Position numbers and translations under genes: made by a program. From assembly GCA_017397825.1 (NCBI GenBank), contig JAFQHT010000145.1, positions 1,024-65,023 of the forward strand: a stretch of DNA of 64,000 nucleotides. The letters are read 5' to 3'. This DNA is from Bacillota bacterium (lineage in GTDB: Bacteria; Bacillota; Clostridia; Peptostreptococcales; Anaerovoracaceae). Each line of letters begins with the position of its first letter. The first letter of the stretch is position 1. Shown piece after piece: positions 3,353-23,461 of the stretch. Below the pieces are notes generated by a model. That model saw only the letters and a program-made list of their open reading frames with translations. It was not told the origin of the DNA and did not search any database.

Positions 3353-5101
3353 TTATGTAATAAGCTTACTACCTCGCAATGTGTCAACCCTTGTATCTCG
3401 CGGCACAATTGTTGGTTCGCTATTATTATTTGACGGCATTTTGTCATGAGATTTTTTTCTTCCTTTCTGGATTCTGTTCTTTGAATTATTCCAAGTATCT
3501 TCAAAACCAGTCTTATATACAAAGACTAATCGATAAGGATCTATTTTTCCATCTTCATTATACCCTCCGACAAGTACTTTTTCAATTACACTTTCGAAAA
3601 TCTCCCTGTCGAATTCCATTGTTTCTTGATAATTCATCAGTTTCTTTTTGAATTCATTAATTCTGCTTCGTATGGGTGCTTTATTATCCTCCAAACTCTG
3701 TAACTCTTCAATCGCCAATTCATACTTTTGTAATTTCAAAGCCATTTTTTTATCAGCTTGCTTATACAGCTCTGCTTCCACATTTCCTTCCAAATACTGA
3801 TTAAGAAGAGTATTCCGTCTTAGTCGGAGATTATCATACTTCTTCGTAACCTCTTCCAGTTTGCTTCTATCATCATTGGCTGTCAGTACCTTCTCAACCT
3901 GTTTAAGAAAAGTGTCAAGCAGTTCTGGATTATCCTTGCAAATCAGTTTATATGATTCCACAAAGGCTTCTTCTATCAACTCTTCCGGAATAGATTTCGA
4001 ATAGACACAATTCTTTTTACCAGTTTTACTTGCCTGAACACATTGCCAGATATGTTTTTTATATTTAGATGCGCTGTGCCACTCTCTTCTTGACATGGAG
4101 CTCCCACAAAAGCTGCATTTCAGCATTGAACTGAATGCATATTTTCGACTCCATTTATCGCGTTTTCCTGGTTCAACCATATTTCGGCTTCCATTCCTAT
4201 GGTTTAATATTGCCTGAGCTTTTTCAAACATCTCCCGGGAAATTATAGGTTCATGATGGTCACGGACATAGTACTGATCCTGCTCCCCGCAATTCATCAG
4301 CCGTCTTTTTGTAATCGGGTCAACTGTGTAAGTTTTCCCCATCAGTACATCTCCTATATACTTTTCGTTACGGATAATCCCAATTACGGTATCATTATTC
4401 CATTTATTCCCTCTGATTGTCTTAATCCCCTGTTCATTAAGTTCCCTGGAAATGATAGTCCCACCTGCGCCACTCACATATCTGTCAAAAATATACTGCA
4501 CAACATGTGCCTCATTTTTATTCACGGTGATAGCTTTTGTAACAGGGTCATAATCATAACCCAGGCATCTTCCGAATCCCACGATTTCTCCACGCTTCAT
4601 CTTCATCTGAAGACCCTTTTTCACATAAGAAGAAGTGTTTACAACTTCCTGCTGTGCAACAGAACTTAGTATGGTAAGCAGAAACTCACCATCCGTCAGC
4701 GTATTAATGCGTTCTACTTCAAAATACACTGCTACATTCTTTGCCTGAAGCATACGCACATACTTGATTGTGTCCAATGTGTTTCTGGCAAAACGAGGGA
4801 TGCTTTTAGCTATAACCATGTCAATTTTCCCATCGAGACATTGGCGAATCATTTTTTGGAATTCTTCACGGGTATCTTTCGTACCGGTTATTGCCTTATC
4901 TGCAAAAACCCCTGCAAAAATCCATTCTTTATTGTTCTTAATTAAGTCGGTGTAATGCTGGACCATCGAATTATAGCTTTTTATTTGGTCTTCATCATCG
5001 GTACTTACTCGGCAGTATGCTGCAACACGTAATCGTTTTATTTTATGGAGACTTCCACTTCGAGCCGCGACATCCGTAGCTTTTATTACTTCTACTTCCA
5101 T
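3353..5101 (-). CDS. Large serine recombinase (ICE integrase)
   Basis: N-terminal resolvase catalytic domain (RVAAYCRVSTDDEDQ). Recombinase domain. Zinc-ribbon Cys cluster (CSFCGSSM...WQCV...KKNC). C-terminal coiled coil. Start chosen at MEVEVIK, preceded by an AGGAGAAAGGAAG RBS. Confidence 0.9.
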   Translation of the reverse strand: MEVEVIKATDVAARSGSLHKIKRLRVAAYCRVSTDDEDQIKSYNSMVQHYTDLIKNNKEWIFAGVFADKAITGTKDTREEFQKMIRQCLDGKIDMVIAKSIPRFARNTLDTIKYVRMLQAKNVAVYFEVERINTLTDGEFLLTILSSVAQQEVVNTSSYVKKGLQMKMKRGEIVGFGRCLGYDYDPVTKAITVNKNEAHVVQYIFDRYVSGAGGTIISRELNEQGIKTIRGNKWNNDTVIGIIRNEKYIGDVLMGKTYTVDPITKRRLMNCGEQDQYYVRDHHEPIISREMFEKAQAILNHRNGSRNMVEPGKRDKWSRKYAFSSMLKCSFCGSSMSRREWHSASKYKKHIWQCVQASKTGKKNCVYSKSIPEELIEEAFVESYKLICKDNPELLDTFLKQVEKVLTANDDRSKLEEVTKKYDNLRLRRNTLLNQYLEGNVEAELYKQADKKMALKLQKYELAIEELQSLEDNKAPIRSRINEFKKKLMNYQETMEFDREIFESVIEKVLVGGYNEDGKIDPYRLVFVYKTGFEDTWNNSKNRIQKGRKKSHDKMPSNNNSEPTIVPRDTRVDTLRGSKLIT

Positions 5102-5153
5102 GATTGCTTCCTTTCTCCTGCAGTCTCCAGTAATCCAGTACCTGTCCAAAGAT

Positions 5154-5829: not shown

Positions 5830-6243
5830 TTAAAAGATTTTTTTGCGGATCTGTTTCAATGTGGCCGAAATCCTCTGCTGGCTCACATTTTCAGCCTGAG
5901 CAATCTCGTTGATGCTCATTCCATGCAGACGCATGGCCAGACGTCTTTGCTGTGTCTCCGTCAATTCATGTATCTTTTCACCGATTTCATGTTCAATTTC
6001 CTTTTCCAAAAGAAGCCCTTCCGGAGTATCCTTGTCAAAGTATTCTTCACCCTCATATGTGATTGCATTGAGGGAATAATTATGTCTGCGTTCTTTTCTG
6101 TTTGAATTTGCTTCTCTTCTGCGGTCTTCAATGATAAATGCTGCTATTCTGTCTTCATCCGCAAACTCCAAATTTACAGATTTTCTGTCCACAAAAATAT
6201 ACCTTATTTTAATTGTCACGTCCGCATATGCCCTGCACCACAC
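5830..6243 (-). CDS. Sigma-70 region-4-like HTH protein typical of Firmicutes ICEs
   Basis: C-terminal LTETQQRRLAMRLHGMSINEIAQAENVSQQRISATLKQIRKKIF. A GTG at 6219 (VTIKIRY...) is an alternative start. Confidence 0.65.
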   Translation of the reverse strand: MWCRAYADVTIKIRYIFVDRKSVNLEFADEDRIAAFIIEDRRREANSNRKERRHNYSLNAITYEGEEYFDKDTPEGLLLEKEIEHEIGEKIHELTETQQRRLAMRLHGMSINEIAQAENVSQQRISATLKQIRKKIF

Positions 6244-6340
6244 ATTTTTTTAATATAAACAGTGCAGTATTCCTCCTACCATACGGGCATATCCGGCAGG
6301 GTTTCACAACAGGCATAAGCAAAATATTTTTGAAAAGCAG

Positions 6341-6378
6341 AAAAGACGTCACCCGGTTTTATACGAATCACGTCTTTT
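6341..6378 (-). terminator. Hairpin terminating the cargo operon
   Basis: AAAAGACGT / ACGTCTTTT arms. On the minus strand a T-rich tract (CTGCTTTTC) follows, downstream of the stop at 6449. Confidence 0.5.
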
Positions 6379-6448
6379 GCATTCCATTCAGACCTCCGGT
6401 TTTCCGGTCAGCCTAATGTTTATATATTATTCTATGGCAACCTATCTG

Positions 6449-7753
6449 CTATTTCACCTTAATCTTCTTCACACTGCTGTAGCTTCCATAAACTTTCGTA
6501 TCATTCACTACCTTATAGGCACGTACCTTCACATAGTAGGTCTTACCCTTCTTCAGCTCCTTGATGGTCTTGGAGCGGGACTTGGAAGAGGAATCCTTTA
6601 CGGATACGGTCTTTGTGTTCTTGGTGAAGTCCTTGTCTGTGGCAATCTTAATCTGGAAGCCATCTGCCATCTGCTGGTTGGTCCAGGACACCTTTAAGGA
6701 ACCGGACTTCGGAGAAGTAGCCTTAACACCTGCAGTCTTTGCAGGGATGTTTTCAAAATACTGTGCCAGGGCATAGTAGGCCTGCTCGGTTGCCATCAGG
6801 TTTACCACTGGTTCATAGCCGCCGCTTGCATGATTTACATGGCGGAAACCGCCTGCATCAGCACCGTCATTGTCGTAATAAGTCATCATGGCATCCAGTA
6901 CGGTTTTACCATTTTTCTTAAAACGCTTGTCAGTATTAGCATTGATACCCAGGTTGGAAAGTGCACTTACCACCTGTGCACTGCTTTCCAGCGTCGGAAC
7001 ACCCCAGCTGCTGAAGCCACCGTCTGCATCCTGCATCTTGGACAGGCAGTTGATAGCCTTGTCGATGGCTGCCTTTACCTTCTTCTGTCCGGAGTATGGT
7101 GCCAGGGATTCCAGACCCATGGCAGTCAGGTCAGGGTCAGATACGCTGCCGCTCAGTGCCCATCCGCCATCCGGCAGCTGATTTTCAATCATATAGTTAA
7201 TCAGCTTCTGACGGGTTGTGAAGTTCTCAATACCGGCTGCTTTCTGCTCTGCTGCAGTCATCTTTGGAATGTCATAATCACCTGCATCCAGGGCACGGAG
7301 TGCGAAAATCGGACCGTTGATGCCCTGCCATACTACCTTATCAAAGTCCGCCAGCATGGCCACCATATCATAGCCGTTAATATCGGTTGGATCAAGGCCC
7401 AGTGCTGCGTAGGCAATAATCACACGGGAGTATTCGGTGTACTTTCTGTCATGGAGAATGCCTTTCACGCCGCGGTAACCATCTTCCAGTGCTGCTTCCA
7501 CAGTCTTCTGATAGCTCTTCACATAGGAGTCCGGGAAGTCGTAGCCCGCTTCTGCCAGACCGTACATGAGCCATTCGCCTCCGATGGAACCAAAGGCAGG
7601 TTCTTTGATAAGATTGTAAAGATAGTCGCCGGTCTTTTCCCAGGCAGCCTTTACATCGCTGTAGGATGCTGCAGAAGCACTTCCCGCACTGCCCAGGCAC
7701 ATAGTCAGCACCAGAGCCAGAATCAGAAGCAGTGATACTAATTTTCTTTTCAT
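6449..7753 (-). CDS. Secreted prenyltransferase/terpene-cyclase-like alpha/alpha-toroid repeat protein with a C-terminal FN3-like domain
   Basis: Signal peptide (MKRKLVSLLLILALVLTMCLGSAGSASA). Repeated toroid motifs (QLPDGGWALS, MQDADGGFSSWG, GGFRH). C-terminal FN3-like module (GKTYYVKVRAYKV). Confidence 0.65.
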   Translation of the reverse strand: MKRKLVSLLLILALVLTMCLGSAGSASAASYSDVKAAWEKTGDYLYNLIKEPAFGSIGGEWLMYGLAEAGYDFPDSYVKSYQKTVEAALEDGYRGVKGILHDRKYTEYSRVIIAYAALGLDPTDINGYDMVAMLADFDKVVWQGINGPIFALRALDAGDYDIPKMTAAEQKAAGIENFTTRQKLINYMIENQLPDGGWALSGSVSDPDLTAMGLESLAPYSGQKKVKAAIDKAINCLSKMQDADGGFSSWGVPTLESSAQVVSALSNLGINANTDKRFKKNGKTVLDAMMTYYDNDGADAGGFRHVNHASGGYEPVVNLMATEQAYYALAQYFENIPAKTAGVKATSPKSGSLKVSWTNQQMADGFQIKIATDKDFTKNTKTVSVKDSSSKSRSKTIKELKKGKTYYVKVRAYKVVNDTKVYGSYSSVKKIKVK

Positions 7754-7780
7754 TCTTTTTTCCTCGCTTTCATTCGCCTT

Positions 7781-8665
7781 TTATGCCATGGAGTTATCGC
7801 CTACGTCCTTGCCCAGGTCGCAGGTATAAACCCACTCAATTACATCGCCGTCACGGAGATAATATGACGAGCATCCGTAGTTCGGGAACCAGCCGTTAAC
7901 CTTGTACATCCATCCGGACAGCGGACCGCCGTCAAACTCGTACAGGTAGTTGATTCCTTCAATATAGTTGGATTCATACACCGGAGTGAAACTGAATTCC
8001 ATGTGTACCCCATTGTTTCTGCAAACGGTGTTGAGTACATCGAACACGGTGTTATCCGTGGTTCCCTGATATACCACATCCTTCAAAATCCATCCGTCTT
8101 CCGGTATGTAATCGCGGATGGACTCGGTTTCCAGCTTGCTCATGTCACTGGAAAGGGTCTCGCAGCTGATGCTGATGGTCACAGTCACCGGCTCCGGTAC
8201 ATCTGGCTTGTAGGCACGGTTGCCGTCATTGGACGCGGTCGGGTCTTTGCTGTTGTCAACCTTCAGTTCTTCTGCTGTCATGTCCTTTGCTTCTTCTTTG
8301 GTCGGACGGTCATCTGCAGGTTTCTGTTCAGGCTCATCAGCCTGGTCTTCTTCAGCGGACTGGTTATCAGAAACATCTTCCTGTTTAACATCAGTCTGCG
8401 TTTCATCATCCTGCTGCAGTTCATCAGACTCAGACTGCTGGATATTATCACCGGTCTGCTGTTCTTCCTGAACCTGCTGCTCCTGCTGGTAATCTACGAT
8501 GTTGCCCTGTCCATCGGGAAGCAGTGCATCTTTGCCTTCAATGCTGAAAATAGAGGCGGTGTAGATGACTGCCGCAATGGCAATCACGCCAAGCACAATG
8601 CGGCGGATACGCTTCTTTCTCAGGTTCTTCGCCAGTTCTTTTTGAAAATCGTGTTTTTCTTCCAT
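7781..8665 (-). CDS. Membrane-anchored DUF4430 (transcobalamin-like C-terminal domain) protein
   Basis: N-terminal TM anchor (IVLGVIAIAAVIYTASIF). About 80 aa of acidic Q/E/D-rich linker. C-terminal domain ending in GPLSGWMYKVNGWFPNYGCSSYYLRDGDVIEWVYT, recognised as DUF4430-like. Confidence 0.7.
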   Translation of the reverse strand: MEEKHDFQKELAKNLRKKRIRRIVLGVIAIAAVIYTASIFSIEGKDALLPDGQGNIVDYQQEQQVQEEQQTGDNIQQSESDELQQDDETQTDVKQEDVSDNQSAEEDQADEPEQKPADDRPTKEEAKDMTAEELKVDNSKDPTASNDGNRAYKPDVPEPVTVTISISCETLSSDMSKLETESIRDYIPEDGWILKDVVYQGTTDNTVFDVLNTVCRNNGVHMEFSFTPVYESNYIEGINYLYEFDGGPLSGWMYKVNGWFPNYGCSSYYLRDGDVIEWVYTCDLGKDVGDNSMA

Positions 8666-8674
8666 AGATACCCC

Positions 8675-9625
8675 CTATTTATATATCCCATATTTAATCT
8701 TAATTCGTTCAATCTTGCGTATCATCGGATCACCCATGAGGAAGATGCAGAAAGCTGCCGCAGCCCCGTGAGCAAGGTCATAAGGAAGCCCGGATACATA
8801 CAGCAGCCTAAGAGTGTTCCAGTTTAGGCCACCGCTTTCACCCATTCCCATGGATGTAACGAAACTGCAGATATTCATCAGGCCGCCATAGAGAATTACG
8901 GTAGTGAAGAACGTAAATACAGTGATTGTGATGCTATCTACCGGCATTCTCTTTCGCTGGAGCAATACCCCCGCCATAAGTCCAAATACGCCGCAGGCAT
9001 ACACAAGCCAAGATGCCTCTTTAATCAGGTTCCAGCCGCATACAAGGCATATTACATAAGCTGTAATCTCAAATGCCGCAATGCACAATACCGGCCCCAT
9101 CACCACGGAGAAGTTTCTGGATTTCAGCCGTTCAGTCTTCTGTCCCAGTTCCACCTTATTAAAGGTCAGCCCCGCAAGGAAGCCTAAAAGCCCCCAGCAG
9201 AACATCTGCCAAGGTGTCCACGGCCCCTGTCCCATATAGAAGTTGCAGACAAATCGTGAGAGTGCTCCTACCAGGAAGCCTGCTTCCGGTCCCATGGCGA
9301 TACCTGCCACAATAACCATGGCAGTCCCAATCTGCAGAGGTACCGTCACATGAAGGAACATGTGGGCTGCCACCGTGATGGCGCTCATCATGGCAACCAG
9401 CACGATTTCACGGGCCTTCGGCTTTCTCTTTTCGAAGACCATGAAAAACGGTGCCATGCAGCAGATAACTACACCTACGCTGATAATCATGTAATACTTG
9501 CCGCCGTCAAGGACGGTGGATAAAGCAATGAGAGCCGGAACTGCCACGAAAATCATCATCGCAGCCATGGCGGTACGCTTCCTTACGGCTTTTGCCCTTA
9601 CCGGATCGTATTCTGTTCTGCCCAT
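8675..9625 (-). CDS. Polytopic membrane protein, putative ECF substrate-specific (S) component (atypically large)
   Basis: 316 aa with about 8 hydrophobic helices. It lies directly downstream of the ECF ATPase with a 28-nt overlap. No enzymatic motifs seen. Confidence 0.55.
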   Translation of the reverse strand: MGRTEYDPVRAKAVRKRTAMAAMMIFVAVPALIALSTVLDGGKYYMIISVGVVICCMAPFFMVFEKRKPKAREIVLVAMMSAITVAAHMFLHVTVPLQIGTAMVIVAGIAMGPEAGFLVGALSRFVCNFYMGQGPWTPWQMFCWGLLGFLAGLTFNKVELGQKTERLKSRNFSVVMGPVLCIAAFEITAYVICLVCGWNLIKEASWLVYACGVFGLMAGVLLQRKRMPVDSITITVFTFFTTVILYGGLMNICSFVTSMGMGESGGLNWNTLRLLYVSGLPYDLAHGAAAAFCIFLMGDPMIRKIERIKIKYGIYK

Positions 9626-11334
9626 GCAGCCACCTCCTCCCAGGTCACAAGGTTTTCATTCCACTGACGCACGATGCGGTTTGCAGTGGTAGTATAGAAG
9701 CTGTTTCCCGCAAAGAACGGTCTTGCAGGGCCTGCAGACACCACATCCCCGTCAAAGAACATGGCGCATCGGTCGCCGTACTCTGCACAGAATTCCACGT
9801 CGTGGGATACCATGAACAGGGTCACGCCCTGCTCTTTCAGCTTCTTAAAGATGCCCGCCAGGGTAATTTTAAAGAACGGGTCAAGGCCCTTGGTCGGTTC
9901 ATCAAGTAATAAAATCTTCGGTTCTAAGAGCAGGATTTTGCCAAGGGCCAGTCTCTGCTGCTCACCACCGGATAAGTCATATGGGTGAGACTTGCGAAGA
10001 TGGCTGATTTCCATTGTTTCAAGCATATTCTCTACCCTTGCTGCCACTTCTTCAGGCGGGAGCTTGCGGTCATAGAGTGCTTCTGCCAGTTCTTCTTCTA
10101 CTGTAATTTCGGTAAAGAGAGCCTGCGGGTTCTGCGGTACCATGGCCATCACGTGCCCCATCAGCTTCCCTGTATTTTCCTTGCAGACTTTCAGGCCGTC
10201 TACAGTGATACTGCCCCTCTGCGGTTTAATCAGCCCCGCCACGGCTTTTAAGGTGGTGGACTTACCGGCACCGTTACCGCCCATGAGGCAGAACAACTCG
10301 CCTGGCTTCACTTTCAGGTTCAAACCACGGAGTACTTGTGGACTGGTTCGGTCATACTGATGCCACAGGTCTTTGATTTCAATAATTGCATCCCCCGGCA
10401 AAATCTCCTCTTCCGGCATTCTCACAGGGTCCAGAGATGCGGATTTTGCGGAGTCTTCCAGAACTGCTTCCAGCCAGAGCCGGCCGTCACGGATGGTCAG
10501 AGGTGCTATACGCTTGCCATCGCTGGTGCGATGAAGGCCCTTTTGCATTTTACTGCCGCCGCAGGCTGAAAAAATCTTCATAACAGACGGAAGACCATAG
10601 AACATAGGGTGGCGTTCCCCCGCGGAGTTTCCTGCCAGGAAGTCACCGATTTTCCACGGGCTGTCACCAGCTATAATGCGGCCCTGATCCATAACCACCA
10701 CCCGGTCTGCCATTGGAATCAGGTCTTCCAGGCGGTGCTCGGAAATGATGACGGTGGTGCCAAGGTCACGGTTGATTTTGTAGACGGTTTTCAGGAACTC
10801 CTCTGCAGCAATCGGATCAAGCTGAGAAGTCGGTTCGTCCAGGATAAGGACTTTCGGCTGCATGACCATAACGGATGCCAGGTTCAGAAGCTGTTTCTGA
10901 CCGCCGGAAAGTTCGGACACGCTCTTGCGGAACCAGGTCTGCATATCGAAGAAGCTTGCCATTTCGGCTACTTTGCGGCGGATAGTCTGGTTGTCCATGC
11001 CCAGGCTTTCAAGACCAAAGGCCAGTTCATGCCATACTTTATCGGTGACAAGCTGGTTGTCCGGGTTCTGCTGTACGAAGCCGATGTCGGTGGTACTGAG
11101 TCTGTCAGGAAGTTCTGCGATTTCCACGCCGCCGTACAGAACGCTGCCTTCCTTATCACCATAAGGAATCAGGTTCTTTTTCAGCTGGCGAAGGAGCGTA
11201 CTCTTGCCGCAGCCGGATTTGCCGCAGATGACGATAAATTCGGACTGCTCTACATCAAGGTTTACATCACGGAGTGCGGGACTTTCTGCCAGCGGATATG
11301 TAAAGGTTAAATTTCGGATTGCAATGCTTGCCAT
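9598..11334 (-). CDS. ECF transporter fused double ATPase (EcfA-EcfA')
   Basis: Two Walker A motifs (GKSGCGKST, GGNGAGKST) and two ABC signatures (LSGGQKQ, LSGGEQQ). Start taken at MASIAIRNLTF. Confidence 0.9.
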   Translation of the reverse strand: MASIAIRNLTFTYPLAESPALRDVNLDVEQSEFIVICGKSGCGKSTLLRQLKKNLIPYGDKEGSVLYGGVEIAELPDRLSTTDIGFVQQNPDNQLVTDKVWHELAFGLESLGMDNQTIRRKVAEMASFFDMQTWFRKSVSELSGGQKQLLNLASVMVMQPKVLILDEPTSQLDPIAAEEFLKTVYKINRDLGTTVIISEHRLEDLIPMADRVVVMDQGRIIAGDSPWKIGDFLAGNSAGERHPMFYGLPSVMKIFSACGGSKMQKGLHRTSDGKRIAPLTIRDGRLWLEAVLEDSAKSASLDPVRMPEEEILPGDAIIEIKDLWHQYDRTSPQVLRGLNLKVKPGELFCLMGGNGAGKSTTLKAVAGLIKPQRGSITVDGLKVCKENTGKLMGHVMAMVPQNPQALFTEITVEEELAEALYDRKLPPEEVAARVENMLETMEISHLRKSHPYDLSGGEQQRLALGKILLLEPKILLLDEPTKGLDPFFKITLAGIFKKLKEQGVTLFMVSHDVEFCAEYGDRCAMFFDGDVVSAGPARPFFAGNSFYTTTANRIVRQWNENLVTWEEVAAWAEQNTIR

Positions 11335-12221
11335 TTCTTTTCTCCCAGTATACCAATGACTGCCGGTGTGAACAGCAAAATGCCGTATGCCGCCAGCGTC
11401 AATATTCTCATAAGATTCCATGTGCCCAGCACAATGGTCGGATAGTAGTTAATTGTGGTAAGGCCCATGATGCAGCCAGCCGCAGTCAGAAGTCCCAGGA
11501 TGGTCATGAAGATAAGCAGCTTCTTGTCCCGGTCTGTGAACTTGAACAGGTGGAAGCTGGTTCTTCCTTTCAGGCCGTAGCCTCTTGCTTCCATGGAGTC
11601 GGATGTTTCAATGGATGCTTCCAGTGACCAGGAAATAAGAATAGAAACTTCCTTCACCGTCTGGCGCACCTTTTCCAGGAAACTCTTTTCCGTGTGGCGG
11701 CCCATGCACCGCTGTCCCATGGAGATTTCGGTATACCGGCTCTTTAAAAGAGGGATAAAGCGGAAAATCATGGACAATGTCAGTGCCAGCACCGGCGCTG
11801 CCTTACCGAAGAGGTAGATAAACTTATCGGATGTCATAATCACATTAAAACAGGAAAACCACACAATCACGGAAGAAAGCATTACCGCCCCAGCCAGTCC
11901 GTAAATGAAAGATTCCAGTGTAATGCGGTTTCCGAACAGGTAAAAGAGCACGGTTGCTCCGTTATGTGTAAAGAGTGTATTGATAACGGCCATGAGAATC
12001 ACGACCGGAATTGTCATAAGTAAGTTGAATTTCAGGCCTTTGCTGCCGGACAGAATGTATGACCAGGTCCAGCTCGCGGCCAGTGTCAGTGCCAGGAAAG
12101 CCGGGTCCATGCTGAACATGGTGATTCCGATGGCAAAGACGAAAAATATGAAGTTTACAGCAGGGTGATACCCTGCAAAGGTACTGGTTTCACCCAGTCC
12201 TGTTCTGTTTTTTTCAGTCAT
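11307..12221 (-). CDS. ECF transporter transmembrane T component (EcfT/CbiQ family)
   Basis: Polytopic protein with the conserved ARG-type coupling motif (SMEARGYGLKGRTSF). It sits directly upstream of the ATPase. Confidence 0.8.
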   Translation of the reverse strand: MTEKNRTGLGETSTFAGYHPAVNFIFFVFAIGITMFSMDPAFLALTLAASWTWSYILSGSKGLKFNLLMTIPVVILMAVINTLFTHNGATVLFYLFGNRITLESFIYGLAGAVMLSSVIVWFSCFNVIMTSDKFIYLFGKAAPVLALTLSMIFRFIPLLKSRYTEISMGQRCMGRHTEKSFLEKVRQTVKEVSILISWSLEASIETSDSMEARGYGLKGRTSFHLFKFTDRDKKLLIFMTILGLLTAAGCIMGLTTINYYPTIVLGTWNLMRILTLAAYGILLFTPAVIGILGEKKWQALQSEI

Positions 12222-12258
12222 TTAAGCTCCTAATACAAAAAACGAAAATATCAACAGG

Positions 12259-12283
12259 TCCCGGGCAGGGTTTCTGCCCGGGA
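12259..12283 (-). other. 10-bp GC-rich hairpin between the giant surface-protein gene and ecfT (possible partial terminator or processing site)
   Basis: TCCCGGGCAG / CTGCCCGGGA arms. The T-run is not immediately adjacent. Confidence 0.35.
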
Positions 12284-12343
12284 TTCTGCTGATTGAATGA
12301 GTTTACCTCATGGAAAACCCCTTGTGATTTTTATTGCAGGATA

Positions 12344-15300
12344 TTACTTGCTCCAGGTTCTGCTTGCATATCTGCACTGCTTCAGAGCAGTTCTTGCAAT
12401 CAGCTTGCCTTCTGCATCGTATACCTGTACGCGTACCTTGTAGTAGTACTTGGTACCCTTCTTACCGCCAGTCTGAGTATAAGTTGTAGTGTCCTTAATC
12501 AGTCTGGAGCTGTACTTGGAAGACTTCTTAGTGGATCTGTAGAAGTTGTACTTCACGGTAAATCCTTCTGCTTCCAGTTCTTCAATGATAGCCTTATCAG
12601 CCTTATCCAGCTGTACGGTTACCTTAATATTCTTCTTGGCAGTCTTGGAAGAACGTGCTACAGGAGTCAGGTCAGCAATCAGAGCCTTCACTTCTTCTGC
12701 AGTCATAGTTTCTTCTTCAACTTCCAGACCGATTTCGTCAGCATCAACCAGTGCAAAGGTGGAGAAGTGAGGAGTATCGAATCTGTAGTGTTTCTTGCCG
12801 CCAACAGTCACTTCCTGACCCTTGAGGTGTTCAATCTTGCCATCGTCTCCGATGTGGATTGCTGCAACCTTCTTACCGTCAAGTTTAGTTGGAATTTCAA
12901 CAGTTACAGTTGCCTTACCTTCGTTGAAGGAAGAAATAGTCTTGTCACCGGACTTGATAACAAGCTGGATAATGTGGCCGTTTTCACCTGCTGCCTGCTT
13001 GTGAACTGCAGTAGGAGCTTTCACTTCCACGATTTCCAGAGTTACGGTGCTTCCTGCAGCTTCAGCTGCTACAGTCTTCAGAACTTCCTGGTCGAGGGAT
13101 ACAGTACCGTTTTCGGTCTTTACAGTCAGAGCTGCAGTAGTATCTTCTACGATATCCTTTACAGTAGCAGTATCCAGCTGAACCTTAACGGTTGCTGCAC
13201 CCTTAGTGTCATCTGCAGATACCTGCAGAACGATTTCGGAAGCCTTGTTTTCAGTTGCCTGCTTGAGAGTTTCGGTTACATTTTCTTTAGTAACAGTTGC
13301 GGTTGCAGTAGAACCAACGATAGTTACTTCGGTTGGAGTAGTGGTAGTGTTGGAAACTGAGCCAGATTCCTTGGAGGTGGTAACTTCAGTCTTTTCTTCT
13401 ACTGCAGGAGGTGCCCAATCTTTACTATCCGGTTCATAAAAATAGTCATCTGTATAGTGGAATATAATTTTGTCACCGTTTTCTAAATACTGCTCAGCAA
13501 CACTAAGTGCAGAATGTTTGCCATTCAGAGTGTACATCCAGCCGGAATTAGGTCCGTTCGTATACTCAGCCAGTTCTTCTTGTGTTCCTGGTTTTGTGAT
13601 GCCCTGTACATAGTTACCCGTTTCATTTCTCCAGGCATATCCTGCATCCCTCAGTGCCATTTCAAAAACATCTCGCACAGTTGCATTGATGCTTACAGGA
13701 TAATTTTTCACATAAATCCATGTCTGCAATCCACCAGTTTCCAAAGTATGGATCTTTTTGTCTGCAGAACTGTCATGAACACTATCTCCAAGCAAAGTAA
13801 ATGATACATTAATAGTTTTCGGATTTTCTGGTGTATCAGCTTTAAGTACTGTCACGGTTATCGTCGTTTCAGCAGTATTGTACTTCAAAGTCACAGTCTG
13901 CAAACCATGCTGATTCTTATTGTATCCATTAATCTGAAGGTCGTTTAAATTCACAGAAGTTCTGCTTCCATCAGACCAATTTGCACTAACAGTTATTCCA
14001 TTTAAATCCAAGTCATCCCCGATGATATACTGAGTCTTATACTCACCGCCAAGGCTTAAGCTGGTCACTATTGGTGTATCACTGATGACTGGATATTTTT
14101 CTCCCTGAATCCAATTCTTATAACTGGATTCAGAATTGTTTAATTCCTGTACAACAGTATTATCCGCTAATTCAGTTTCACTTCTTGGAGAACTGAATTT
14201 GTCTGCACCAACGATCGCACCTGTAACAGCACCTCCAATTCCATCAGCAGTGCCACAATTATCAAGGAAGAAATTTGTTGGATTGCCTTTTGTTTTTGTG
14301 AAATCATTTACGCACCCTATAATTGCACCGACATTTTTTTCGCCATAGAGCTTACCATAGAATAAGTTGTCTGACAGTGCATTGGCACCTTTAATTCCAT
14401 AATCATCGCCGGTGTCATTATAATTGACATGGCCCACTTCTGAACCAATTATGCCTCCTACTTCTTCGACACCTTTAATATCAGCTGCTACATAACAATT
14501 ATGTATTTGAACTACCGGTGTTCCTGAAGCACCTCCAATATATCCAGAACCTGCAATGCCGCCTACTCTCATACCGGATGCTTCTATTGTTCCTAAAAAT
14601 GCACTGTTTTTTACAGTACACGGTCCTATAGACTGTCCTTTTGAACCGAATAAACCACCTACATAATCTACGCCATAAACTGCAGCATAGCTTTTACTGT
14701 TTTCAATGGTTCCATTAAAATCTCCACAGAAAGATCCAATTCGGCTTTGGTCTTTGTTATATCCAATAACAACACCATCTTCAATCAGACAGTTGCGAAT
14801 ATTAATGGCATTAACTCCCGATGCATATCCCCCGGCGAATCCCGATTTTAAAATCTTTGTTCCCGATTTTATGGTTACTTTTTCAATATCAATAGTTCGT
14901 AATTTTACCGTGTCATTTTGATATTCTCCTGTTTCGCCATAGTCAACTACATATTTGTCAAGTAAACCGTATCCATCAATATGATTTCCCTGAATTGTCA
15001 TATTTTTAATCGTTGCATGACGTGCATAGTTCAAGAGTGGTTTCCCGTAATCTGCAATAATTAAAGAATACCCCTTGCCATCGATGGTTCCACTAAAAGG
15101 CTGCAGACTAATGCCACAATCATTCTCTTTTCCTCCAGGTTTCAGATTGCCGATTGGTTTCCACGTTTCTGATAACTCAATATTATTTGCAAATGCCAGA
15201 ACCTGTCCTGAAAAGCTAAATGGCTGCCCAGCTTCTCCTTCAACTAACTTTTTCACGTAATTCAGGTCATCTTCGTTATGAATCAGATACGGATCACTTT

Positions 15301-17062
15301 CTGTTCCTGAGCCTTTCAGTCCAGTAACAACATCCGTAGAATCTTTAAATGTTACCTGTACAGGATTACTTACTATACTGTCTCCTGTAAAACCTTCAGA
15401 CGAGACTTTAATTTCCGCATAATAGAAATACGATCCTATTACATCTTGTGTATCATTTAAAGTAACACTATATTTATTACATTTTTTCTCATCTTTAGTA
15501 GTGTTTCCATCGCTACGGCATTCAGTTGCGATTAGCTCACTTCCTTCAAAACTTGCTGTTTCATTGCGATACATGGAAATTTTATAATCTACACCTTCTA
15601 TAGGGTCGTTATTCGAAGCAGCAAGCAAACCAATTTCAAACGATGGTTTCTCCCCTTTGAACAATATATCCTTACCACTTATCTGGAGAGGTATCAAAAT
15701 TTCAGGAGCAGTAAGTGTGCTTGATCTAACTTCATAGTTTATATCATTGGATGTAGACTCAAAAGATATACCATCAACTGTATAGGTAACAACACAGAAG
15801 TATTTTTCTGTTCCTATATATTTCGTTGAAGGCTGATAGGATGATTCTGTTGCACCATTGATTATTTTTTTATTTGTTCCCAGATATCTGTACCACTGAT
15901 AAGATAATGTTCCTTCGCCATCTGTCGGTTCACTCACAACAGCCGTCAGCATTTTTCCACTGCCTTTTTCAGTAGTCACATCGTCGATTTTTTCTATAAC
16001 AGGAGATAAGTCCTTTTTACATACGAATAAGGTGTATTCAGTCTCTAATTCCCCATTTTTGACTTTGATAGGAATGCAGGCACGATCTGATTCCGGTGTA
16101 GGCTTGTATTTGGTCAGTTCATATTTATTATTTTTAGCGTCATACTTTTCTTCACCTACCCATATTTCTGTTTCCGTACTATCAATCTTAGTTGTTGTTG
16201 ATTCAAGATTTAAATTAATTTCATTCGCAGCAGTAATTGTAGTAAAATTATTATTATATGGGTCAACTACAGAATTAAATGCCGGAGTAACAGTCAAATT
16301 ATCTGTTCCCACGCTCACGCTTAAAGTTTTTAGGGTTAAGCTTCGCGTGATAAGGTAATCATACGAATCATAATTAACAAAGCTACCATCCTTATCCACT
16401 GGCCCAACTTTGACAGTCAATTTCGTTTGTTTTCCAGCAGGGAAGTTCTGAATTCTAAGGATTTGTTTAAACGGATCCGATGTGGTTTTCTTCGTTAATG
16501 CAATCTTGGTATTTTTTTGTTCGACACCATCGATTAGTAAAGAAACATGCAACTTTAAATCTATACAATCATCTGGTATAGTGATATTAATTTTTGAAGT
16601 CATATTTCTTGAGTCAGGAAGTACTAAACTATATTCTTTTGTATTTGCCTGGAAGACACAATCTTCGACAATTCCGCTAGTTACTAGTTGATTAACATTG
16701 AATGTGATATCTTCTACATACCCGTGTATCTCATTACCACTGTTGTCTGCTGGTTCACTCACAGTCTGCGGAGAATCCTGCTGCTGTTCCGAATTAGCAC
16801 CCAGTTCCGTCAGGGCTGCAGCTGCCACAGTGCCGTTATCAACGGTTGCCACAGCGGCATTGCTGCTTAATTTAATCGTTTCCACGGGCACAACATCCGT
16901 ACTCCCGCCATCTTCCACTGATGCCGATACTACAACTTCATCACCACTGCCTGTAATGGTTCCATCCTCAGCAAATGCCATACTGGGCATCATTGTGAAA
17001 ACCATCATGAATACCAGAAGCAGTGAAATCAGTCTTGAACTTTTTTTCATGTTCTTTTTCAT
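12344..17062 (-). CDS. 1572-aa secreted multidomain protein: Ig-like repeats, GLUG-motif region, internal DUF4430 domain, C-terminal FN3-like module
   Basis: Signal peptide (MKKNMKKSSRLISLLLVFMMVFTMMPSMAFA). GLUG-type repeats (VGGLFGS, VGGIAGS, VGGIIGS, VGAIIGC; about nt 14288-14680). DUF4430-like segment at aa ~1083-1207 (nt 13442-13816; NSGWMYTLNGKHSALSVAEQYLENGDKIIFHYT). No LPXTG signal. Confidence 0.8.
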   Translation of the reverse strand: MKKNMKKSSRLISLLLVFMMVFTMMPSMAFAEDGTITGSGDEVVVSASVEDGGSTDVVPVETIKLSSNAAVATVDNGTVAAAALTELGANSEQQQDSPQTVSEPADNSGNEIHGYVEDITFNVNQLVTSGIVEDCVFQANTKEYSLVLPDSRNMTSKINITIPDDCIDLKLHVSLLIDGVEQKNTKIALTKKTTSDPFKQILRIQNFPAGKQTKLTVKVGPVDKDGSFVNYDSYDYLITRSLTLKTLSVSVGTDNLTVTPAFNSVVDPYNNNFTTITAANEINLNLESTTTKIDSTETEIWVGEEKYDAKNNKYELTKYKPTPESDRACIPIKVKNGELETEYTLFVCKKDLSPVIEKIDDVTTEKGSGKMLTAVVSEPTDGEGTLSYQWYRYLGTNKKIINGATESSYQPSTKYIGTEKYFCVVTYTVDGISFESTSNDINYEVRSSTLTAPEILIPLQISGKDILFKGEKPSFEIGLLAASNNDPIEGVDYKISMYRNETASFEGSELIATECRSDGNTTKDEKKCNKYSVTLNDTQDVIGSYFYYAEIKVSSEGFTGDSIVSNPVQVTFKDSTDVVTGLKGSGTESDPYLIHNEDDLNYVKKLVEGEAGQPFSFSGQVLAFANNIELSETWKPIGNLKPGGKENDCGISLQPFSGTIDGKGYSLIIADYGKPLLNYARHATIKNMTIQGNHIDGYGLLDKYVVDYGETGEYQNDTVKLRTIDIEKVTIKSGTKILKSGFAGGYASGVNAINIRNCLIEDGVVIGYNKDQSRIGSFCGDFNGTIENSKSYAAVYGVDYVGGLFGSKGQSIGPCTVKNSAFLGTIEASGMRVGGIAGSGYIGGASGTPVVQIHNCYVAADIKGVEEVGGIIGSEVGHVNYNDTGDDYGIKGANALSDNLFYGKLYGEKNVGAIIGCVNDFTKTKGNPTNFFLDNCGTADGIGGAVTGAIVGADKFSSPRSETELADNTVVQELNNSESSYKNWIQGEKYPVISDTPIVTSLSLGGEYKTQYIIGDDLDLNGITVSANWSDGSRTSVNLNDLQINGYNKNQHGLQTVTLKYNTAETTITVTVLKADTPENPKTINVSFTLLGDSVHDSSADKKIHTLETGGLQTWIYVKNYPVSINATVRDVFEMALRDAGYAWRNETGNYVQGITKPGTQEELAEYTNGPNSGWMYTLNGKHSALSVAEQYLENGDKIIFHYTDDYFYEPDSKDWAPPAVEEKTEVTTSKESGSVSNTTTTPTEVTIVGSTATATVTKENVTETLKQATENKASEIVLQVSADDTKGAATVKVQLDTATVKDIVEDTTAALTVKTENGTVSLDQEVLKTVAAEAAGSTVTLEIVEVKAPTAVHKQAAGENGHIIQLVIKSGDKTISSFNEGKATVTVEIPTKLDGKKVAAIHIGDDGKIEHLKGQEVTVGGKKHYRFDTPHFSTFALVDADEIGLEVEEETMTAEEVKALIADLTPVARSSKTAKKNIKVTVQLDKADKAIIEELEAEGFTVKYNFYRSTKKSSKYSSRLIKDTTTYTQTGGKKGTKYYYKVRVQVYDAEGKLIARTALKQCRYASRTWSK

Positions 17063-17161
17063 TTTATTATATTTTCCTTTCTCCGGACATCAGCTGCCCG
17101 GCCGCCTTTCGCAGTTTTATCTGCGATTTATCTATGTCAAACACTTAATGTACAAGTGTGG

Positions 17162-17491
17162 TTACCTAGTGGTCTGAAGGAGACATTCTGTTGCAATACG
17201 CTCTTCTCTGCACTTTTTACGGTTTTCCGCAGAACGTTTCCGCATCTCTGTGTGCTTCTTCCTATATTTTTCTTTTCTGTGCAGATGCTTCTCTGATACC
17301 GGCTTCAACCCGGCCTGTTCCAGAATTCTCGGCCACGGTCCGAATCTCTGTTTGAAATAGAACGCACATGCAACATCATCCTTTATAGGCAGCCGGCCAA
17401 GTTCTGCTGCCTTCTGGCGTAGTATATCCAGAAGTGCTTCATCACTCATCAGGGTATATTCCGCTGTGATGCGTTTTTCTTCCTGTGTCAT
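17162..17491 (-). CDS. Small protein with one homing-endonuclease-associated (HEARO-like) repeat and a basic tail
   Basis: DEALLDILRQKAAELGRLPIKDD...FKQRFGPWPRILEQAGLKP followed by a K/R-rich tail. The start overlaps the upstream stop (TAATG). Confidence 0.5.
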   Translation of the reverse strand: MTQEEKRITAEYTLMSDEALLDILRQKAAELGRLPIKDDVACAFYFKQRFGPWPRILEQAGLKPVSEKHLHRKEKYRKKHTEMRKRSAENRKKCREERIATECLLQTTR

Positions 17492-17817
17492 TATTTACCC
17501 TCCTCCGCTTGTTTACGTGTTTCTGCAGATTTATCTCTTGCAGCCTGCAGTTTCCGTCTGCTGGCAGCCTTTCTTCTCTGATGGGTCTTGGAGGCCGGCT
17601 TCAGCCCTGCCTTCTCAAGCATTCTCGTCCATGGGCCGAACCGCTCTTTTAGATACCACGTCAGCTCCATCTCGGATTTTAATGGGCGGCGCCCCAGCTC
17701 TACAGCCTTTTGCTGCACCACTGCCAGAAGTTCCTCATCGCTCATCTGCTTATATTTACTTAATAAAAATTCTTCTTCCTCTGTTAAATGAAGTTTGAAA
17801 TCGTCGAAATCTTTCAT
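17491..17817 (-). CDS. Paralog of 17162..17491 (HEARO-like repeat and basic tail)
   Basis: DEELLAVVQQKAVELGRRPLKSE...LKERFGPWTRMLEKAGLKP. Start taken at MKDFDDFKL (17817). Confidence 0.5.
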   Translation of the reverse strand: MKDFDDFKLHLTEEEEFLLSKYKQMSDEELLAVVQQKAVELGRRPLKSEMELTWYLKERFGPWTRMLEKAGLKPASKTHQRRKAASRRKLQAARDKSAETRKQAEEGK

Positions 17818-17985
17818 GTTCAAGTTACTTCCTGTTTCTATGTATTGAGAGAGCGGAGCAGCACCTTCGAGGGTTTTCTCTGCTCCGCAGAATGAAAAGA
17901 CTATTTTTATAAAACAAAAAGGCTGTAACAAAACTACCAGATCTACTGGTAATTTCATTACAGCCCGGGTTTCCTGTAATAGGTA

Positions 17986-18220
17986 CAAAAACAACAAAAA
18001 ACACCTGTATCATTCCCCGTGATACTGTGCCTTCGCTTTTCCACTTTCATGCATGTTTTCTGACTTGTGCGTCATCGCGTTCTCCGTCTTCTCAAAATAC
18101 TACAGGTTCCTGCTCATATTTCAATGACATAATGGAGAAAACTCTTCACCTACAGCGGCGGGTGCCGTACCGGACTTCGACCGGATTCCATCTTAGCCCC
18201 AGGCTTCCGTCGCCCAGGGA
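17986..18220 (-). promoter_or_regulatory. Probable cobalamin riboswitch (short form lacking the peripheral extension) with terminator
   Basis: Minus-strand core TAAGATGGAATCCGGTCGAAGTCCGGTACGGCACCCGCCGCTGTAGG. Then ATTATGTCATTG and a degenerate B12 box, GAGCAGGAACCTGT. Hairpin at 18002-18029 followed by TTTTTTGTTGTTTTT. Confidence 0.55.
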
Positions 18221-18712: not shown

Positions 18713-19261
18713 TTATTTCTTGTCATTATGAAAAGCCAACATGCCGAACAGGTAAAGATGCTCCGACGACCATGCCAGTTCCAGACCGCAGCGTTCCGCC
18801 AGCTTAGCCACATCGATACAGTAGGCAGACATACAGCTGATTCTCTGGTCCGGATGACGGCAAGGAAGATTTTGACGGCGCAGGCAAGGCTCGCACAGCG
18901 GACAGCCGTTGTAACCGGAACAGAATCCATAATATCCCTGTTTCTCCATTTCGGCCTTCAACCGGAGCACCATCTGATTATGAGCTTTTTTAGCCTTCTG
19001 CACGGTTTCCTTGTCTTCATATCCTGCAATATCCCAAATTGTCTGAACGATCAGAACCCGTTCTTCTGCCAGAATGTTCTGCCGAAGAGCTTCGACCGGG
19101 CCGCAGTCTGGCGGGCAGGAATAATTGGCATTGTAATTGCCGCAGAGGTTCTGCTCACAGTAAACACGAAATTTCGCGTCCACCGGAACGTCTTCCGGCT
19201 TTATCAAAGCCGCACGGAAGCCATGTGCCTCCGCCATGAGAAGGAGTTCTTTTTCAGTCAT
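18713..19261 (-). CDS. DUF2284-type predicted metal-binding (Cys-rich) protein
   Basis: Cys clusters (YCEQNLCGNY..YSCPPDCG; CPLCEPCLRR..PCRHP). Family name recalled from memory. Confidence 0.6.
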   Translation of the reverse strand: MTEKELLLMAEAHGFRAALIKPEDVPVDAKFRVYCEQNLCGNYNANYSCPPDCGPVEALRQNILAEERVLIVQTIWDIAGYEDKETVQKAKKAHNQMVLRLKAEMEKQGYYGFCSGYNGCPLCEPCLRRQNLPCRHPDQRISCMSAYCIDVAKLAERCGLELAWSSEHLYLFGMLAFHNDKK

Positions 19262-19267
19262 AGATGA

Positions 19268-19696
19268 TTACACCTCTTGATTACTTTGACATTCCGCCTT
19301 CCAGCAGAGTTTGTAAAGTGATTTGTTTGTTTTGCCTGCTGGCTGCAGAACGCCCACATCACATAACTTCTGCAAGTAGCGCCATGCGGTAGCCGAAGAT
19401 TTACCTGTCAATTCTACAACTGTTTGAGTCTTGATTTCTTCGTGCTCTTCTAAATATTCAATAATATTATAAAGTTTTTTATACTCACTTTCTTTCAAAA
19501 CTTCTTTCAAAACTTCTTTCATTTTTTCATTTTTTTGAATTAAGTTTGAATCGTCATTTAGAAATCCTTCATGGATAAACAGTCTTGAAATAAAATAGGT
19601 TCTACCCTCATCGGTTTCAAATTCCGGTTTTGGAGAGCCATTCGCTTCCAAAGCATCAAGGATTTTCTTAAATCCGGTATTTCTGCCTTCTGTCAA
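19268..19696 (-). pseudogene. 5'-truncated remnant of an AlbA_2/HATPase_c_4-type regulator gene (C-terminal part plus wHTH only)
   Basis: It begins mid-domain (TEGRNTGFKKILDALEANGSPKPEFETDEGRTYF), whereas the full-length neighbour is 480 aa. It is flanked by a 25-bp direct duplication. Confidence 0.6.
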
Positions 19697-19796
19697 ATGA
19701 AGTTCTTTCAGAAAATCTCCAACAGCAGAAGGAGTTCTTTTTCAGTCATAGTTAGTTACCTCGGTAGTTTGTACGGCAGTGGTGCTATTTTGTCTT

Positions 19797-21341: not shown

Positions 21342-21451
21342 TCATGTCATTATTATATACTGTTTTCTGTAACTTACCCCTTACCATTCTCCTATTGACA
21401 TCTCCCACCACTTGCCATATAATCAATCAAAACTTCCGAAGGAGACAAACT

Positions 21452-22548: not shown

Positions 22549-22605
22549 GTATATCATTCTCCTTCTACGATTTCATCTCAGGAGAACGCTGCTGCGAATT
22601 GAGCC

Positions 22606-22636
22606 AAAAGAAAAGAAGCCCGGCTCTCCAGGCTTC
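22606..22636 (-). terminator. Rho-independent terminator after the 99-aa gene
   Basis: GAAGCCTGG-AGAG-CCGGGCTTC followed by TTTTCTTTT on the minus strand. Confidence 0.7.
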
Positions 22637-22680
22637 CCTTCCACTAATATTAACTATGGAAAACAAAAAGTAACATTTTT

Positions 22681-22980
22681 CTATTCTTCTTCCGGCATAG
22701 GCCAGTACAGGCAGTAGGCCGGGTACATTTCACCGATGTACACCCACACCGTTTCCCCCATATCGATGTGTTTCTTAAAGGTAAGATCCGGGATAAATAT
22801 CTTCAGTGCGGACCGCTTCTTTCCGATGAGAACCACCCCTTCTGCTGTCGGATTCTGTCGGAATTCCTCGATTTTTTCTCTCAGCCCTGCGATTCCGGTT
22901 TCCTTTCCGAAATTATCCGCAAAATCATCAATCGGCACGTATGCCACATTGTCCGGGTTTTCAAACCATTCTACTCTCAT
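22681..22980 (-). CDS. Hypothetical 99-aa acidic cytoplasmic protein (target of the riboswitch)
   Basis: MRVEWFENPDNVAYVPIDDFADNFGKE... with a GGAGG RBS. It is bracketed by the riboswitch leader and its own terminator. No family recognised. Confidence 0.6.
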   Translation of the reverse strand: MRVEWFENPDNVAYVPIDDFADNFGKETGIAGLREKIEEFRQNPTAEGVVLIGKKRSALKIFIPDLTFKKHIDMGETVWVYIGEMYPAYCLYWPMPEEE

Positions 22981-23086
22981 AGTGATACCTCCATGTATTG
23001 AAATTTTTTGTTTGGGTCTTGCAGGAGATGGGGCGAAGCTGCACACGGCACCCACGCCCCAAAATGAATGAAAAGAACAATTGCAA

Positions 23087-23393
23087 TATAAAAAGCCTGA
23101 TAGCCACTTGGGTCATCAGGTCCTGCAATCCTTTCCTGTTTCAATAAAAAAGCTGCGGCCCTGCCACAGCTGATAATCATTGATAGAAGAAAATCCTCAC
23201 CCTAATTACCCGTAGTGTGCTTCGATAGTTATGGACTCATGCAGGTCTCCTGGCTCGGACGTCTTCGCACCTTCCGTCTTCCCAGTCTTTCGACCAGTGA
23301 CATAAATGAAAGGCACTCTTTCCTTACAGTGGCGGGACCGCACAGGACTTTAACCTGTTTCCCTATTAACCGGCGTGCAGCCGGACATGAATC
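23087..23393 (-). promoter_or_regulatory. Cobalamin riboswitch (aptamer ~23233-23393) with two tandem terminator hairpins in the expression platform
   Basis: Minus strand: GGTTAATAGGGAAACAGGTTAAAGTCCTGTGCGGTCCCGCCACTGTAAGG ... GTCACTGG...CTGGGAAGACGG ... B12 box GAGCCAGGAGACCTGC. Terminators at 23146-23170 (GCTGTGGC/GCCGCAGC then TTTTTT) and 23087-23121. Confidence 0.85.
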
Positions 23394-23414
23394 GGATATT
23401 CAGTTTATATGGGG

Positions 23415-23443
23415 AGTATAACACAGCTGCAGGCAGAATGTAA
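23415..23443 (-). promoter_or_regulatory. Sigma-A-type promoter for the riboswitch leader
   Basis: TTACAT, a 17-nt spacer, then TATACT on the minus strand, about 20 nt upstream of the aptamer. Confidence 0.5.
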
Positions 23444-23461
23444 CCCCCAATTTGAAAAATA

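Follow-up and report, generated by a model that had tools for sequence, protein, structure and literature searches.

In a 64,000-nucleotide stretch of DNA from a Bacillota bacterium of the family Anaerovoracaceae (assembly GCA_017397825.1, contig JAFQHT010000145.1, positions 1,024 to 65,023; the whole stretch is referred to as "the window" in this study), a cobalamin (vitamin B12) riboswitch on the minus strand is followed by a single gene encoding an acidic protein of 99 amino acids. What is known here is the riboswitch unit, a standard one, and what is new is its product, an orphan protein family. The explanation that best accounts for the data, and which we regard as reasonably probable, is that an OFF-type B12 riboswitch controls a protein of an undescribed family, an intracellular accessory for corrinoid handling that would be made when B12 is scarce. 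That the family belongs to the B12 regulon and has a role in B12 economy is very likely; that the small protein itself binds or escorts corrinoids is a suggestion we make tentatively.

The riboswitch and its expression platform

The covariance model of the cobalamin riboswitch (RF00174, Rfam) matches positions 23223-23405 of the minus strand over its entire length (model positions 1-189 of 189), with a score of 118.1 bits against a gathering threshold of 31.5 (E 5.3e-29). A first-pass annotation of the window had described a complete riboswitch with all conserved blocks and a B12 box, and the search bears this out: the GCCACUG core and the B12 box (AGCCAGGAGACCUGC) are intact in the alignment to the RF00174 consensus, and the columns of both are invariant among 17 related aptamers. 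Judged by its sequence, the RNA is a genuine and unremarkable member of this known riboswitch family. No ANTAR-type or other conserved RNA element besides the aptamer was found in the leader by the Rfam scan. The unit consists of the following parts.

23415-23444, minus strand: promoter-like site (consensus match)
23223-23405, minus strand: cobalamin aptamer RF00174, full length (Rfam)
23325-23343, minus strand: aptamer core segment GUGCGGUCCCGCCACUGUA, predicted antiterminator partner (fold and duplex energy)
23141-23171, minus strand: intrinsic terminator 1, the putative expression platform (hairpin energy; conserved in homologous leaders)
23087-23124, minus strand: second terminator-like hairpin with UUUUU (hairpin energy)
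23029-23061, minus strand: strong hairpin without a U-run (hairpin energy)
22988-22992, minus strand: ribosome-binding site (RBS), GGAGG (sequence; same place in homologues)
22681-22980, minus strand: gene for the 99-amino-acid acidic protein (open reading frame and homologues)
22600-22642, minus strand: intrinsic terminator closing the single-gene unit (-22.8 kcal/mol, z-score -3.0)

A promoter, TTACAT-17-TATACT, had previously been placed at 23415-23443. A promoter-like site is indeed present there, which we read as GTTACA-18-TATACT with a TG-extended -10 (23444-23415, minus strand; 9 of 12 consensus matches), but the match is not significant on its own, as the scan returned 4 sites in the region when 2.6 were expected by chance. 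Its position fits the start of the aptamer, the implied transcription start lying about 5-10 nucleotides 5' of the latter. Position 23453, the exact start of homology to other contigs bearing the unit, is located just 5' of the promoter-like site.

The stretch of leader between the aptamer and the open reading frame (ORF) is 243 nucleotides long, and two tandem terminators had been proposed within it. The first is clear, having a 9-bp GC-rich stem (23151-23171) followed by UUUUUU about 50 nucleotides 3' of the aptamer (-15 kcal/mol, z-score -3.4), whereas the second (23093-23124, followed by UUUUU) is weaker (-11.6 kcal/mol, z-score -1.8) and was found by one scan and missed by a stricter scanner. 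The third hairpin, absent from the first-pass annotation, is strong (-21.5 kcal/mol, z-score -3.7), and the stretch carrying it is missing from the leader of a variant contig (cluster member P0189), so that it is dispensable there. The remaining signals agree with what had been described, namely the GGAGG RBS, which is 7 nucleotides 5' of the ATG at 22980, and the strong terminator 3' of the ORF. No promoter-like site was found between the terminators and the ORF in the promoter scan of the region.

The minimum-energy fold of the leader through terminator 1 contains no terminator, its sequence being taken up instead in a pairing with the core segment GUGCGGUCCCGCCACUGUA; the duplex between the aptamer core and terminator 1 is predicted to be worth -27.5 kcal/mol versus -15 kcal/mol for the terminator hairpin. 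Every aptamer-bearing homologous leader has a terminator 60-110 nucleotides past the aptamer and a strong RBS, and in 23 of 40 such leaders the aptamer segment that pairs best with the terminator overlaps the GCCACUG core. The terminator is thus predicted in silico to be mutually exclusive with an aptamer element, which is what defines an expression platform in RF00174. We infer that the riboswitch would act as a transcription-termination OFF switch of the classical arrangement: when a corrinoid is bound, the aptamer core would be locked, and terminator 1 would be freed and would form; when no ligand is present, the core segment GCGGUCCCGCCACUG would pair with the terminator sequence, giving read-through into the single gene.

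In the btu and cob leaders of Firmicutes, which are RF00174 riboswitches of the OFF type, the same combination is found of a full aptamer with a B12 box and a terminator competing with the aptamer core, placed before genes that are needed at B12 scarcity. The window unit differs from these in its unusual product and in the extra second and third hairpins of its leader.

The 99-residue protein and its family

The ORF at 22681-22980 (minus strand) encodes a protein of 11.5 kDa with an isoelectric point (pI) of 4.7 and 14% aromatic residues. No transmembrane or hydrophobic segment and no signal peptide were found in it, and the protein is probably cytoplasmic, given its pI and the lack of a hydrophobic segment. 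The earlier description of an acidic ORF with no membrane segment and no Cys motif therefore stands with one correction: there is a single Cys, C90, which nearly all members of the family share. Further invariant residues are Y14, F20, K26, E27, R56, W79, E84, Y86, Y89 and Y92. His71 is not conserved.

Conservation of the ORF, on which the first-pass reading had been made to depend, is pronounced. Homologues form 79 clusters at 90% identity, are constant in length and extend down to about 45% identity; the ratio of nonsynonymous to synonymous substitution rates (dN/dS) is 0.05-0.08 in comparison with relatives at 73-94% protein identity, synonymous sites being near saturation. The exact protein is present at NCBI as MBQ4650910.1, "hypothetical protein", and occurs on 37 contigs; all named members of the family are likewise labelled "hypothetical". 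When 1.84 billion representative proteins were searched exhaustively with an HMMER profile, only 102 relatives and no bridge to a larger family came to light. In that search, two low-scoring repeat proteins (P0158 and P0170) were set aside as spurious, and an "IMP cyclohydrolase" (P0203) inside one of the 90% clusters proved to be a clustering artefact.

The protein had been said to lack any recognisable family, and every search made here agrees. There was no match to it in Pfam (2025 copy), NCBIfam (June 2026) or PHROGs, none of 63 aligned family members had a Pfam match at E up to 1, and a profile search of the PDB gave no sequence relative. AlphaFold predicts a confident small alpha/beta domain (predicted local distance difference test score, pLDDT, 92.5; predicted template-modelling score 0.82), for which Foldseek found no fold analogue in the PDB or among the predicted viral structures of BFVD (best E about 1, template-modelling score at most 0.39). 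The possibility that the small protein is a split-off C-terminal domain of SseB was rejected, with an hhalign probability of 0.1. No description of the family was found in the literature, the coverage of which was incomplete, and the literature on PF04071, DUF2284, HNH_repeat and riboswitch-associated proteins of unknown function held no account of it. Conservation, selection and the confident structural model indicate that the ORF is a real, strongly selected gene of a previously undescribed family.

Recurrence behind cobalamin riboswitches

A scan of one genome per species gave 155 relatives, of which the best 80 loci, with 81 gene copies, were kept (loci and contigs are cited below by their L numbers). 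Most of the loci are from Anaerovoracaceae (Eubacterium nodatum, E. minutum, Emergencia timonensis, Clostridium aminobutyricum and Aminipila), the rest being from related uncultured Clostridia. Aptamers were searched for with Rfam in 18 loci, and then in all 80 with an nhmmer profile built from 17 aptamers; an aptamer was counted as upstream when it was on the same strand and less than 1.5 kb 5' of the small gene. The nhmmer search placed a cobalamin aptamer 5' of 43 of the 81 copies, mostly 97-360 nucleotides away. A further Rfam search, covering 13 "negative" loci, agreed with the negatives and picked up one weak aptamer (L028, 37 bits), bringing the count to 44.

As a genome of this kind has roughly ten cobalamin riboswitches among thousands of genes, the enrichment of such riboswitches upstream of the family is very large. 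Nor is it a matter of one inherited arrangement: a neighbour-joining tree of the proteins requires at least 13 changes of riboswitch state, and the loci have very different flanking genes. Thus, in L001, L006, L012 and L013 the riboswitch and the gene are alone among unrelated housekeeping genes (e.g. those for RmuC, phosphopentomutase and YitT); in L010, L017, L020, L029, L050, L066 and L075 one riboswitch precedes the small gene and another the next operon, as in the window; and in L004 a riboswitch heads an operon that begins with a DUF4430 gene and ends with the small gene. Recurrent association with cobalamin riboswitches was a check proposed by the first-pass annotation, and these gains and losses in many unrelated neighbourhoods answer it positively: the comparison identifies the family as a recurrent member of the B12 riboswitch regulon.

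Other features were seen at some of these loci. Shortly 3' of the closest homologues there are S-adenosylmethionine riboswitches of 78-80 bits (L001, 8477-8612; L002, 2675-2790; L003, 6481-6596). Behind the second riboswitch of L029 (6317-12282) and L075 (6784-12276), no closed ORF is found on the forward strand for more than 5 kb, which suggests a very large gene running past the fetched stretch, probably another giant surface protein.

Neighbouring and fused genes

Within 6 kb of the small gene, the most frequent neighbours in the 80 loci are DUF4430 proteins (18 loci), squalene-cyclase-like/fn3 surface proteins, the energy-coupling factor (ECF) ATPase EcfAA' and SseB-family proteins (17 loci each), followed by EcfT (12), a TIM-barrel protein whose best family match is CbiR (11), a long ECF S component (8), and DUF2284 and HNH_repeat proteins (5 each). 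In L064 and L070, the next operon, with a riboswitch of its own, encodes a classical BtuF/BtuC/BtuD importer, so that the family adjoins two unrelated kinds of B12 importer. The first-pass idea that the product might be B12-related is supported by these neighbours and by the fusion partners described below, which are corrinoid-uptake or -processing genes. A chaperone, a binding protein or a regulator had been named there merely as candidates for its role.

The TIM-barrel neighbour scored 41.8 and 38.0 bits against the CbiR family (NF041277), below the cut-off of 105; CbiR is nonetheless its best-scoring family, and by these scores we call it only CbiR-like. CbiR is a cobamide-remodelling phosphodiesterase of the AP endonuclease 2 superfamily (Mok et al. 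2020, PMC7733943). By sharing an operon or locus with the small gene, the CbiR-like gene places the latter in a context of corrinoid uptake and remodelling, even though the neighbour is absent from the window and the small protein itself is unrelated to CbiR.

Of all these leads, a gene fusion is the most specific. In 10 loci (L041, L044, L045, L050, L051, L064, L066, L070, L073 and L075), the small domain continues at its C-terminus into PF04071 ("zf-like", a "cysteine-rich small domain"), in which 8 Cys and 2 His are invariant; the fusion protein of L050 (6001-6564) is from Emergencia timonensis. In 8 more loci PF04071 is encoded by a separate gene, which adjoins the small gene in 7 and is about 3 kb upstream in L039. 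No PF04071 domain is present in the window protein or anywhere in the window. On its own, PF04071 gave a poor AlphaFold model (pLDDT 67.5), a result to be expected of a fold that depends on metal. PF04071 is presumably also fused to a cobalamin-biosynthesis methyltransferase in methanogens. In two Eubacterium loci (L089 and L090, 6001-6279), a stand-alone PF04071 gene directly follows a 2-oxoacid:ferredoxin oxidoreductase gene pair and is 1.1 kb upstream of a gene for a class II (B12-dependent type) ribonucleotide reductase; no riboswitch was detected in the vicinity. A 102-amino-acid unannotated gene beside PF04071 in L091 was considered and is not a family member; there is no riboswitch at that locus.

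Several further arrangements were observed. Tandem paralogues occur in L005 (3530-4652), where one riboswitch is followed by an SseB_N-like gene, a divergent paralogue (109 amino acids) and an orthologue (106 amino acids), and in L073 (6723-7022), where an unfused second copy comes after the PF04071 fusion. In a clade without riboswitches (L027, L035, L037, L040 and L055, about 6000-11600), the small gene is followed by genes for SseB and a sigma-54-type activator. From our own reading of the sequences, the further genes of this clade resemble those for 2,4-diaminopentanoate dehydrogenase and 2-amino-4-ketopentanoate thiolase, and we take them to be ornithine-fermentation genes; the ornithine fermentation pathway uses a B12-dependent aminomutase. 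The DUF2284 protein, a Cys-rich "predicted metal-binding" protein, shares an operon with the small gene in L038, L054, L059, L065 and L079. At the same five loci, HNH_repeat proteins ("homing endonuclease associated repeat", PF18780) recur beside the small gene; no literature on an association between HNH_repeat and B12 riboswitches was found.

The conjugative element and the uptake operon

Upstream of the unit in the window there are genes of the VirD4, VirB4, TrbL, PrgI and CHAP types (Pfam annotation of the identical contig L081), by which the unit is placed within a conjugative element. Contigs L087 and L088 share exactly window positions 23453-22552 and then resume at 21393. The serine resolvase and Cass2/GyrI-like gene pair between these points is therefore a later insertion, of 1158 bp relative to L087 and L088, which are otherwise 97-99% identical to the window; at the junction about 12 bp overlap. 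In L088, window positions 19264-19728, which carry an HTH_24 gene, are missing as well. L083 shares only the HU gene, the riboswitch, the small gene and the terminator (23792-22608), and has them behind a different transfer backbone. As the promoter, riboswitch, gene and terminator are shared by these contigs with different flanks, they constitute a module of about 900 bp, which, to judge from the genes next to it, heads the B12-acquisition cargo of the conjugative element. The features of this region are as follows.

22552-23453, minus strand: self-contained promoter-riboswitch-gene-terminator module (contig comparison)
21394-22551, strand not assigned: resolvase and Cass2/GyrI-like cassette, outside the unit (Pfam and contig comparison)
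18033-18241, minus strand: second cobalamin riboswitch, full length, 92.9 bits, heading the uptake operon (Rfam)
6449-17997, minus strand: putative corrinoid-uptake operon behind the second riboswitch (domain annotation)

The uptake operon had been placed 4.8 kb from the unit; its riboswitch is in fact 4.4 kb from the ORF. The operon encodes two small HNH_repeat proteins (17162-17997, minus strand), which come first behind the riboswitch, as well as a 1572-amino-acid surface protein with Big_3 and DUF4430 domains, EcfT, a fused EcfAA', an unusually long ECF S component (316 amino acids), a DUF4430 protein, and a squalene-cyclase-like protein with fn3 domains. This is the set of genes that neighbours the small gene in other genomes, and the operon looks like a Gram-positive system for corrinoid capture and import. 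The pairing of an alpha/alpha-toroid-like protein with DUF4430 presumably recalls the two domains of transcobalamin. A DUF2284 gene (18713-19261, minus strand) is located between the two riboswitch units. A pemK RNA motif (RF02913; 5494-5580, minus strand; 42.8 bits against a gathering threshold of 34.8) follows shortly after the uptake operon and precedes an ORF of 598 amino acids (3353-5149).

Discussion

On the reading that we prefer, the small protein would be made when B12 is scarce and would act inside the cell as an accessory for imported corrinoids, receiving them, escorting them or presenting them for processing; where PF04071 is present, it would probably work with this partner, which may bind a metal or an iron-sulphur cluster. 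In its most specific form, this would make the family a new fold of soluble corrinoid-binding or trafficking protein, a cytoplasmic "B12 escort" that, together with the PF04071 redox/metal partner, passes corrinoids from the ECF and BtuFCD importers on to decyanation, reduction, remodelling or client enzymes. That form is more speculative still than corrinoid binding as such.

The notion of a soluble protein taking over imported cobalamin has a parallel, by concept only, in MMACHC/CblC and MMADHC/CblD, the cytosolic B12 chaperones of eukaryotes. The near-invariant Cys of the small protein recalls thiolate-cobalt chemistry; however, there is no similarity to them in sequence or fold, and the small protein is much smaller. 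Comparable in genetic setting are the accessories of B12 uptake, such as BtuG and BtuH of Bacteroides, the DUF4430/transcobalamin-like binders, ECF-CbrT and BtuM, which are also encoded in riboswitch-controlled B12 acquisition loci and many of which were first recognised as "hypothetical" genes behind B12 riboswitches. Unlike these surface and membrane proteins, the small protein has no signal peptide or membrane segment; it is also without similarity to them in sequence or predicted fold, and it is often alone under its own riboswitch. PF04071 differs in its turn, as its family is much larger and usually not behind a riboswitch, and the window protein lacks the domain.

Several observations weigh against a corrinoid-handling function. 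No riboswitch is found upstream of 35 of the 81 copies, and 26 of the 80 loci have no B12-related gene within 6 kb; the unlinked loci include a rumen clade located by YjeF/MazG and acyl-CoA ligase genes and a clade located by riboflavin genes, and for about one third of the homologues there is no visible link to B12. The small protein may therefore have a role that is not confined to B12. In addition, none of the known B12-binding domains or signatures (Rossmann-type DxHxxG, DUF4430/transcobalamin-like or BtuF-type) was detected in it by profile, motif or fold, and the PDB profile and Foldseek searches gave no structural analogue that might point to such a function. PF04071 is a large family of more than 2600 clusters, and no riboswitch was found on it in three other contexts that were checked. 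Finally, the second hairpin of the leader (23087-23124) has no evident antiterminator and would lower expression.

Of the other explanations, the one that survives best, although we consider it unlikely, is that the small protein is a regulator or adaptor that, at low B12, binds a transporter, a B12-dependent enzyme or a transcription factor and retunes metabolism or uptake without touching the cofactor. A protein that is small and acidic, has no pocket-defining motif, and is often encoded alone under its own riboswitch and far from any enzyme might be of this type. The tandem paralogues, the SseB-like neighbours in 17 loci, and the clade in which the gene is directly upstream of those for SseB, the sigma-54 activator and ornithine fermentation are also consistent with it. 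Two GC-rich distant family members carry an N-terminal HNH_repeat-like unit, possibly a nucleic-acid-binding module, but the evidence for this fusion is weak (E 0.006); moreover, the protein has no DNA-binding features and its pI is acidic. The PF04071 fusion, the two kinds of importer and the CbiR-like neighbour fit cofactor handling better than regulation.

B12 riboswitches classically repress B12-independent isozymes, and a single-gene unit would suit a self-sufficient replacement; the small protein could accordingly be imagined as a B12-independent substitute or sparing factor for a B12-dependent function, comparable to MetE or NrdDG. This is improbable, as the small protein lacks catalytic and cofactor motifs and resembles no enzyme, and its neighbours are uptake genes rather than metabolic pathways.

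The two terminator-like hairpins and the long 243-nucleotide leader between aptamer and ORF raise the thought that the riboswitch mainly yields a short, terminated regulatory RNA of the EutX/Rli55 type, with the tandem terminators as its 3' ends and the ORF independent or incidental. EutX/Rli55 indeed resembles the window unit in that terminators and a long stretch without coding sequence come after a B12 riboswitch. We consider this very improbable, because: the region between the terminators and the ORF holds no promoter-like site; the Rfam scan revealed no ANTAR-type or other conserved element; the ORF has an RBS and is under strong selection; and, unlike in EutX/Rli55, a conserved and selected ORF with a strong RBS follows in the 44 homologous loci, with the aptamer directly 5' of it and often only about 97 nucleotides and a single terminator in between.

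Least probable of all, and largely refuted by the comparative data, is that the gene is no more than cargo of a mobile element (for example an anti-defence or maintenance factor) with a riboswitch next to it by local accident: its position in the window between type IV secretion genes, an HU gene and a resolvase, and the occurrence of the exact protein on 37 contigs, would agree with this, but most homologues are chromosomal in Anaerovoracaceae, with no conjugation genes nearby and the riboswitch still present, there is no PHROGs match, and the resolvase cassette is a later insertion.

Bacteria of the gut and rumen compete for B12 and its analogues, and this competition shapes their communities. 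How corrinoids are captured at the surface and carried across the membrane is increasingly understood; their fate after entry into Gram-positive anaerobes is not. Riboswitches indicate function directly and with ligand specificity, and here they lead to an unannotated family that has no domain match or structural analogue. Hypothetical genes adjacent to riboswitches are common, which makes the finding less surprising, but the family seen in the window is unusually well supported by comparative data. The small, soluble and easily expressed protein is thus a candidate for a missing B12-handling function, with PF04071 as a concrete partner, and the fact that a conjugative element carries the unit along with a full uptake operon suggests that the unit has a part in a transferable B12-scavenging trait. 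If the "B12 escort" reading is true, the protein would fill a largely blank step in the intracellular handling of B12 in Gram-positive anaerobes, and a conjugative element would pass it from one gut bacterium to another within a complete acquisition kit.

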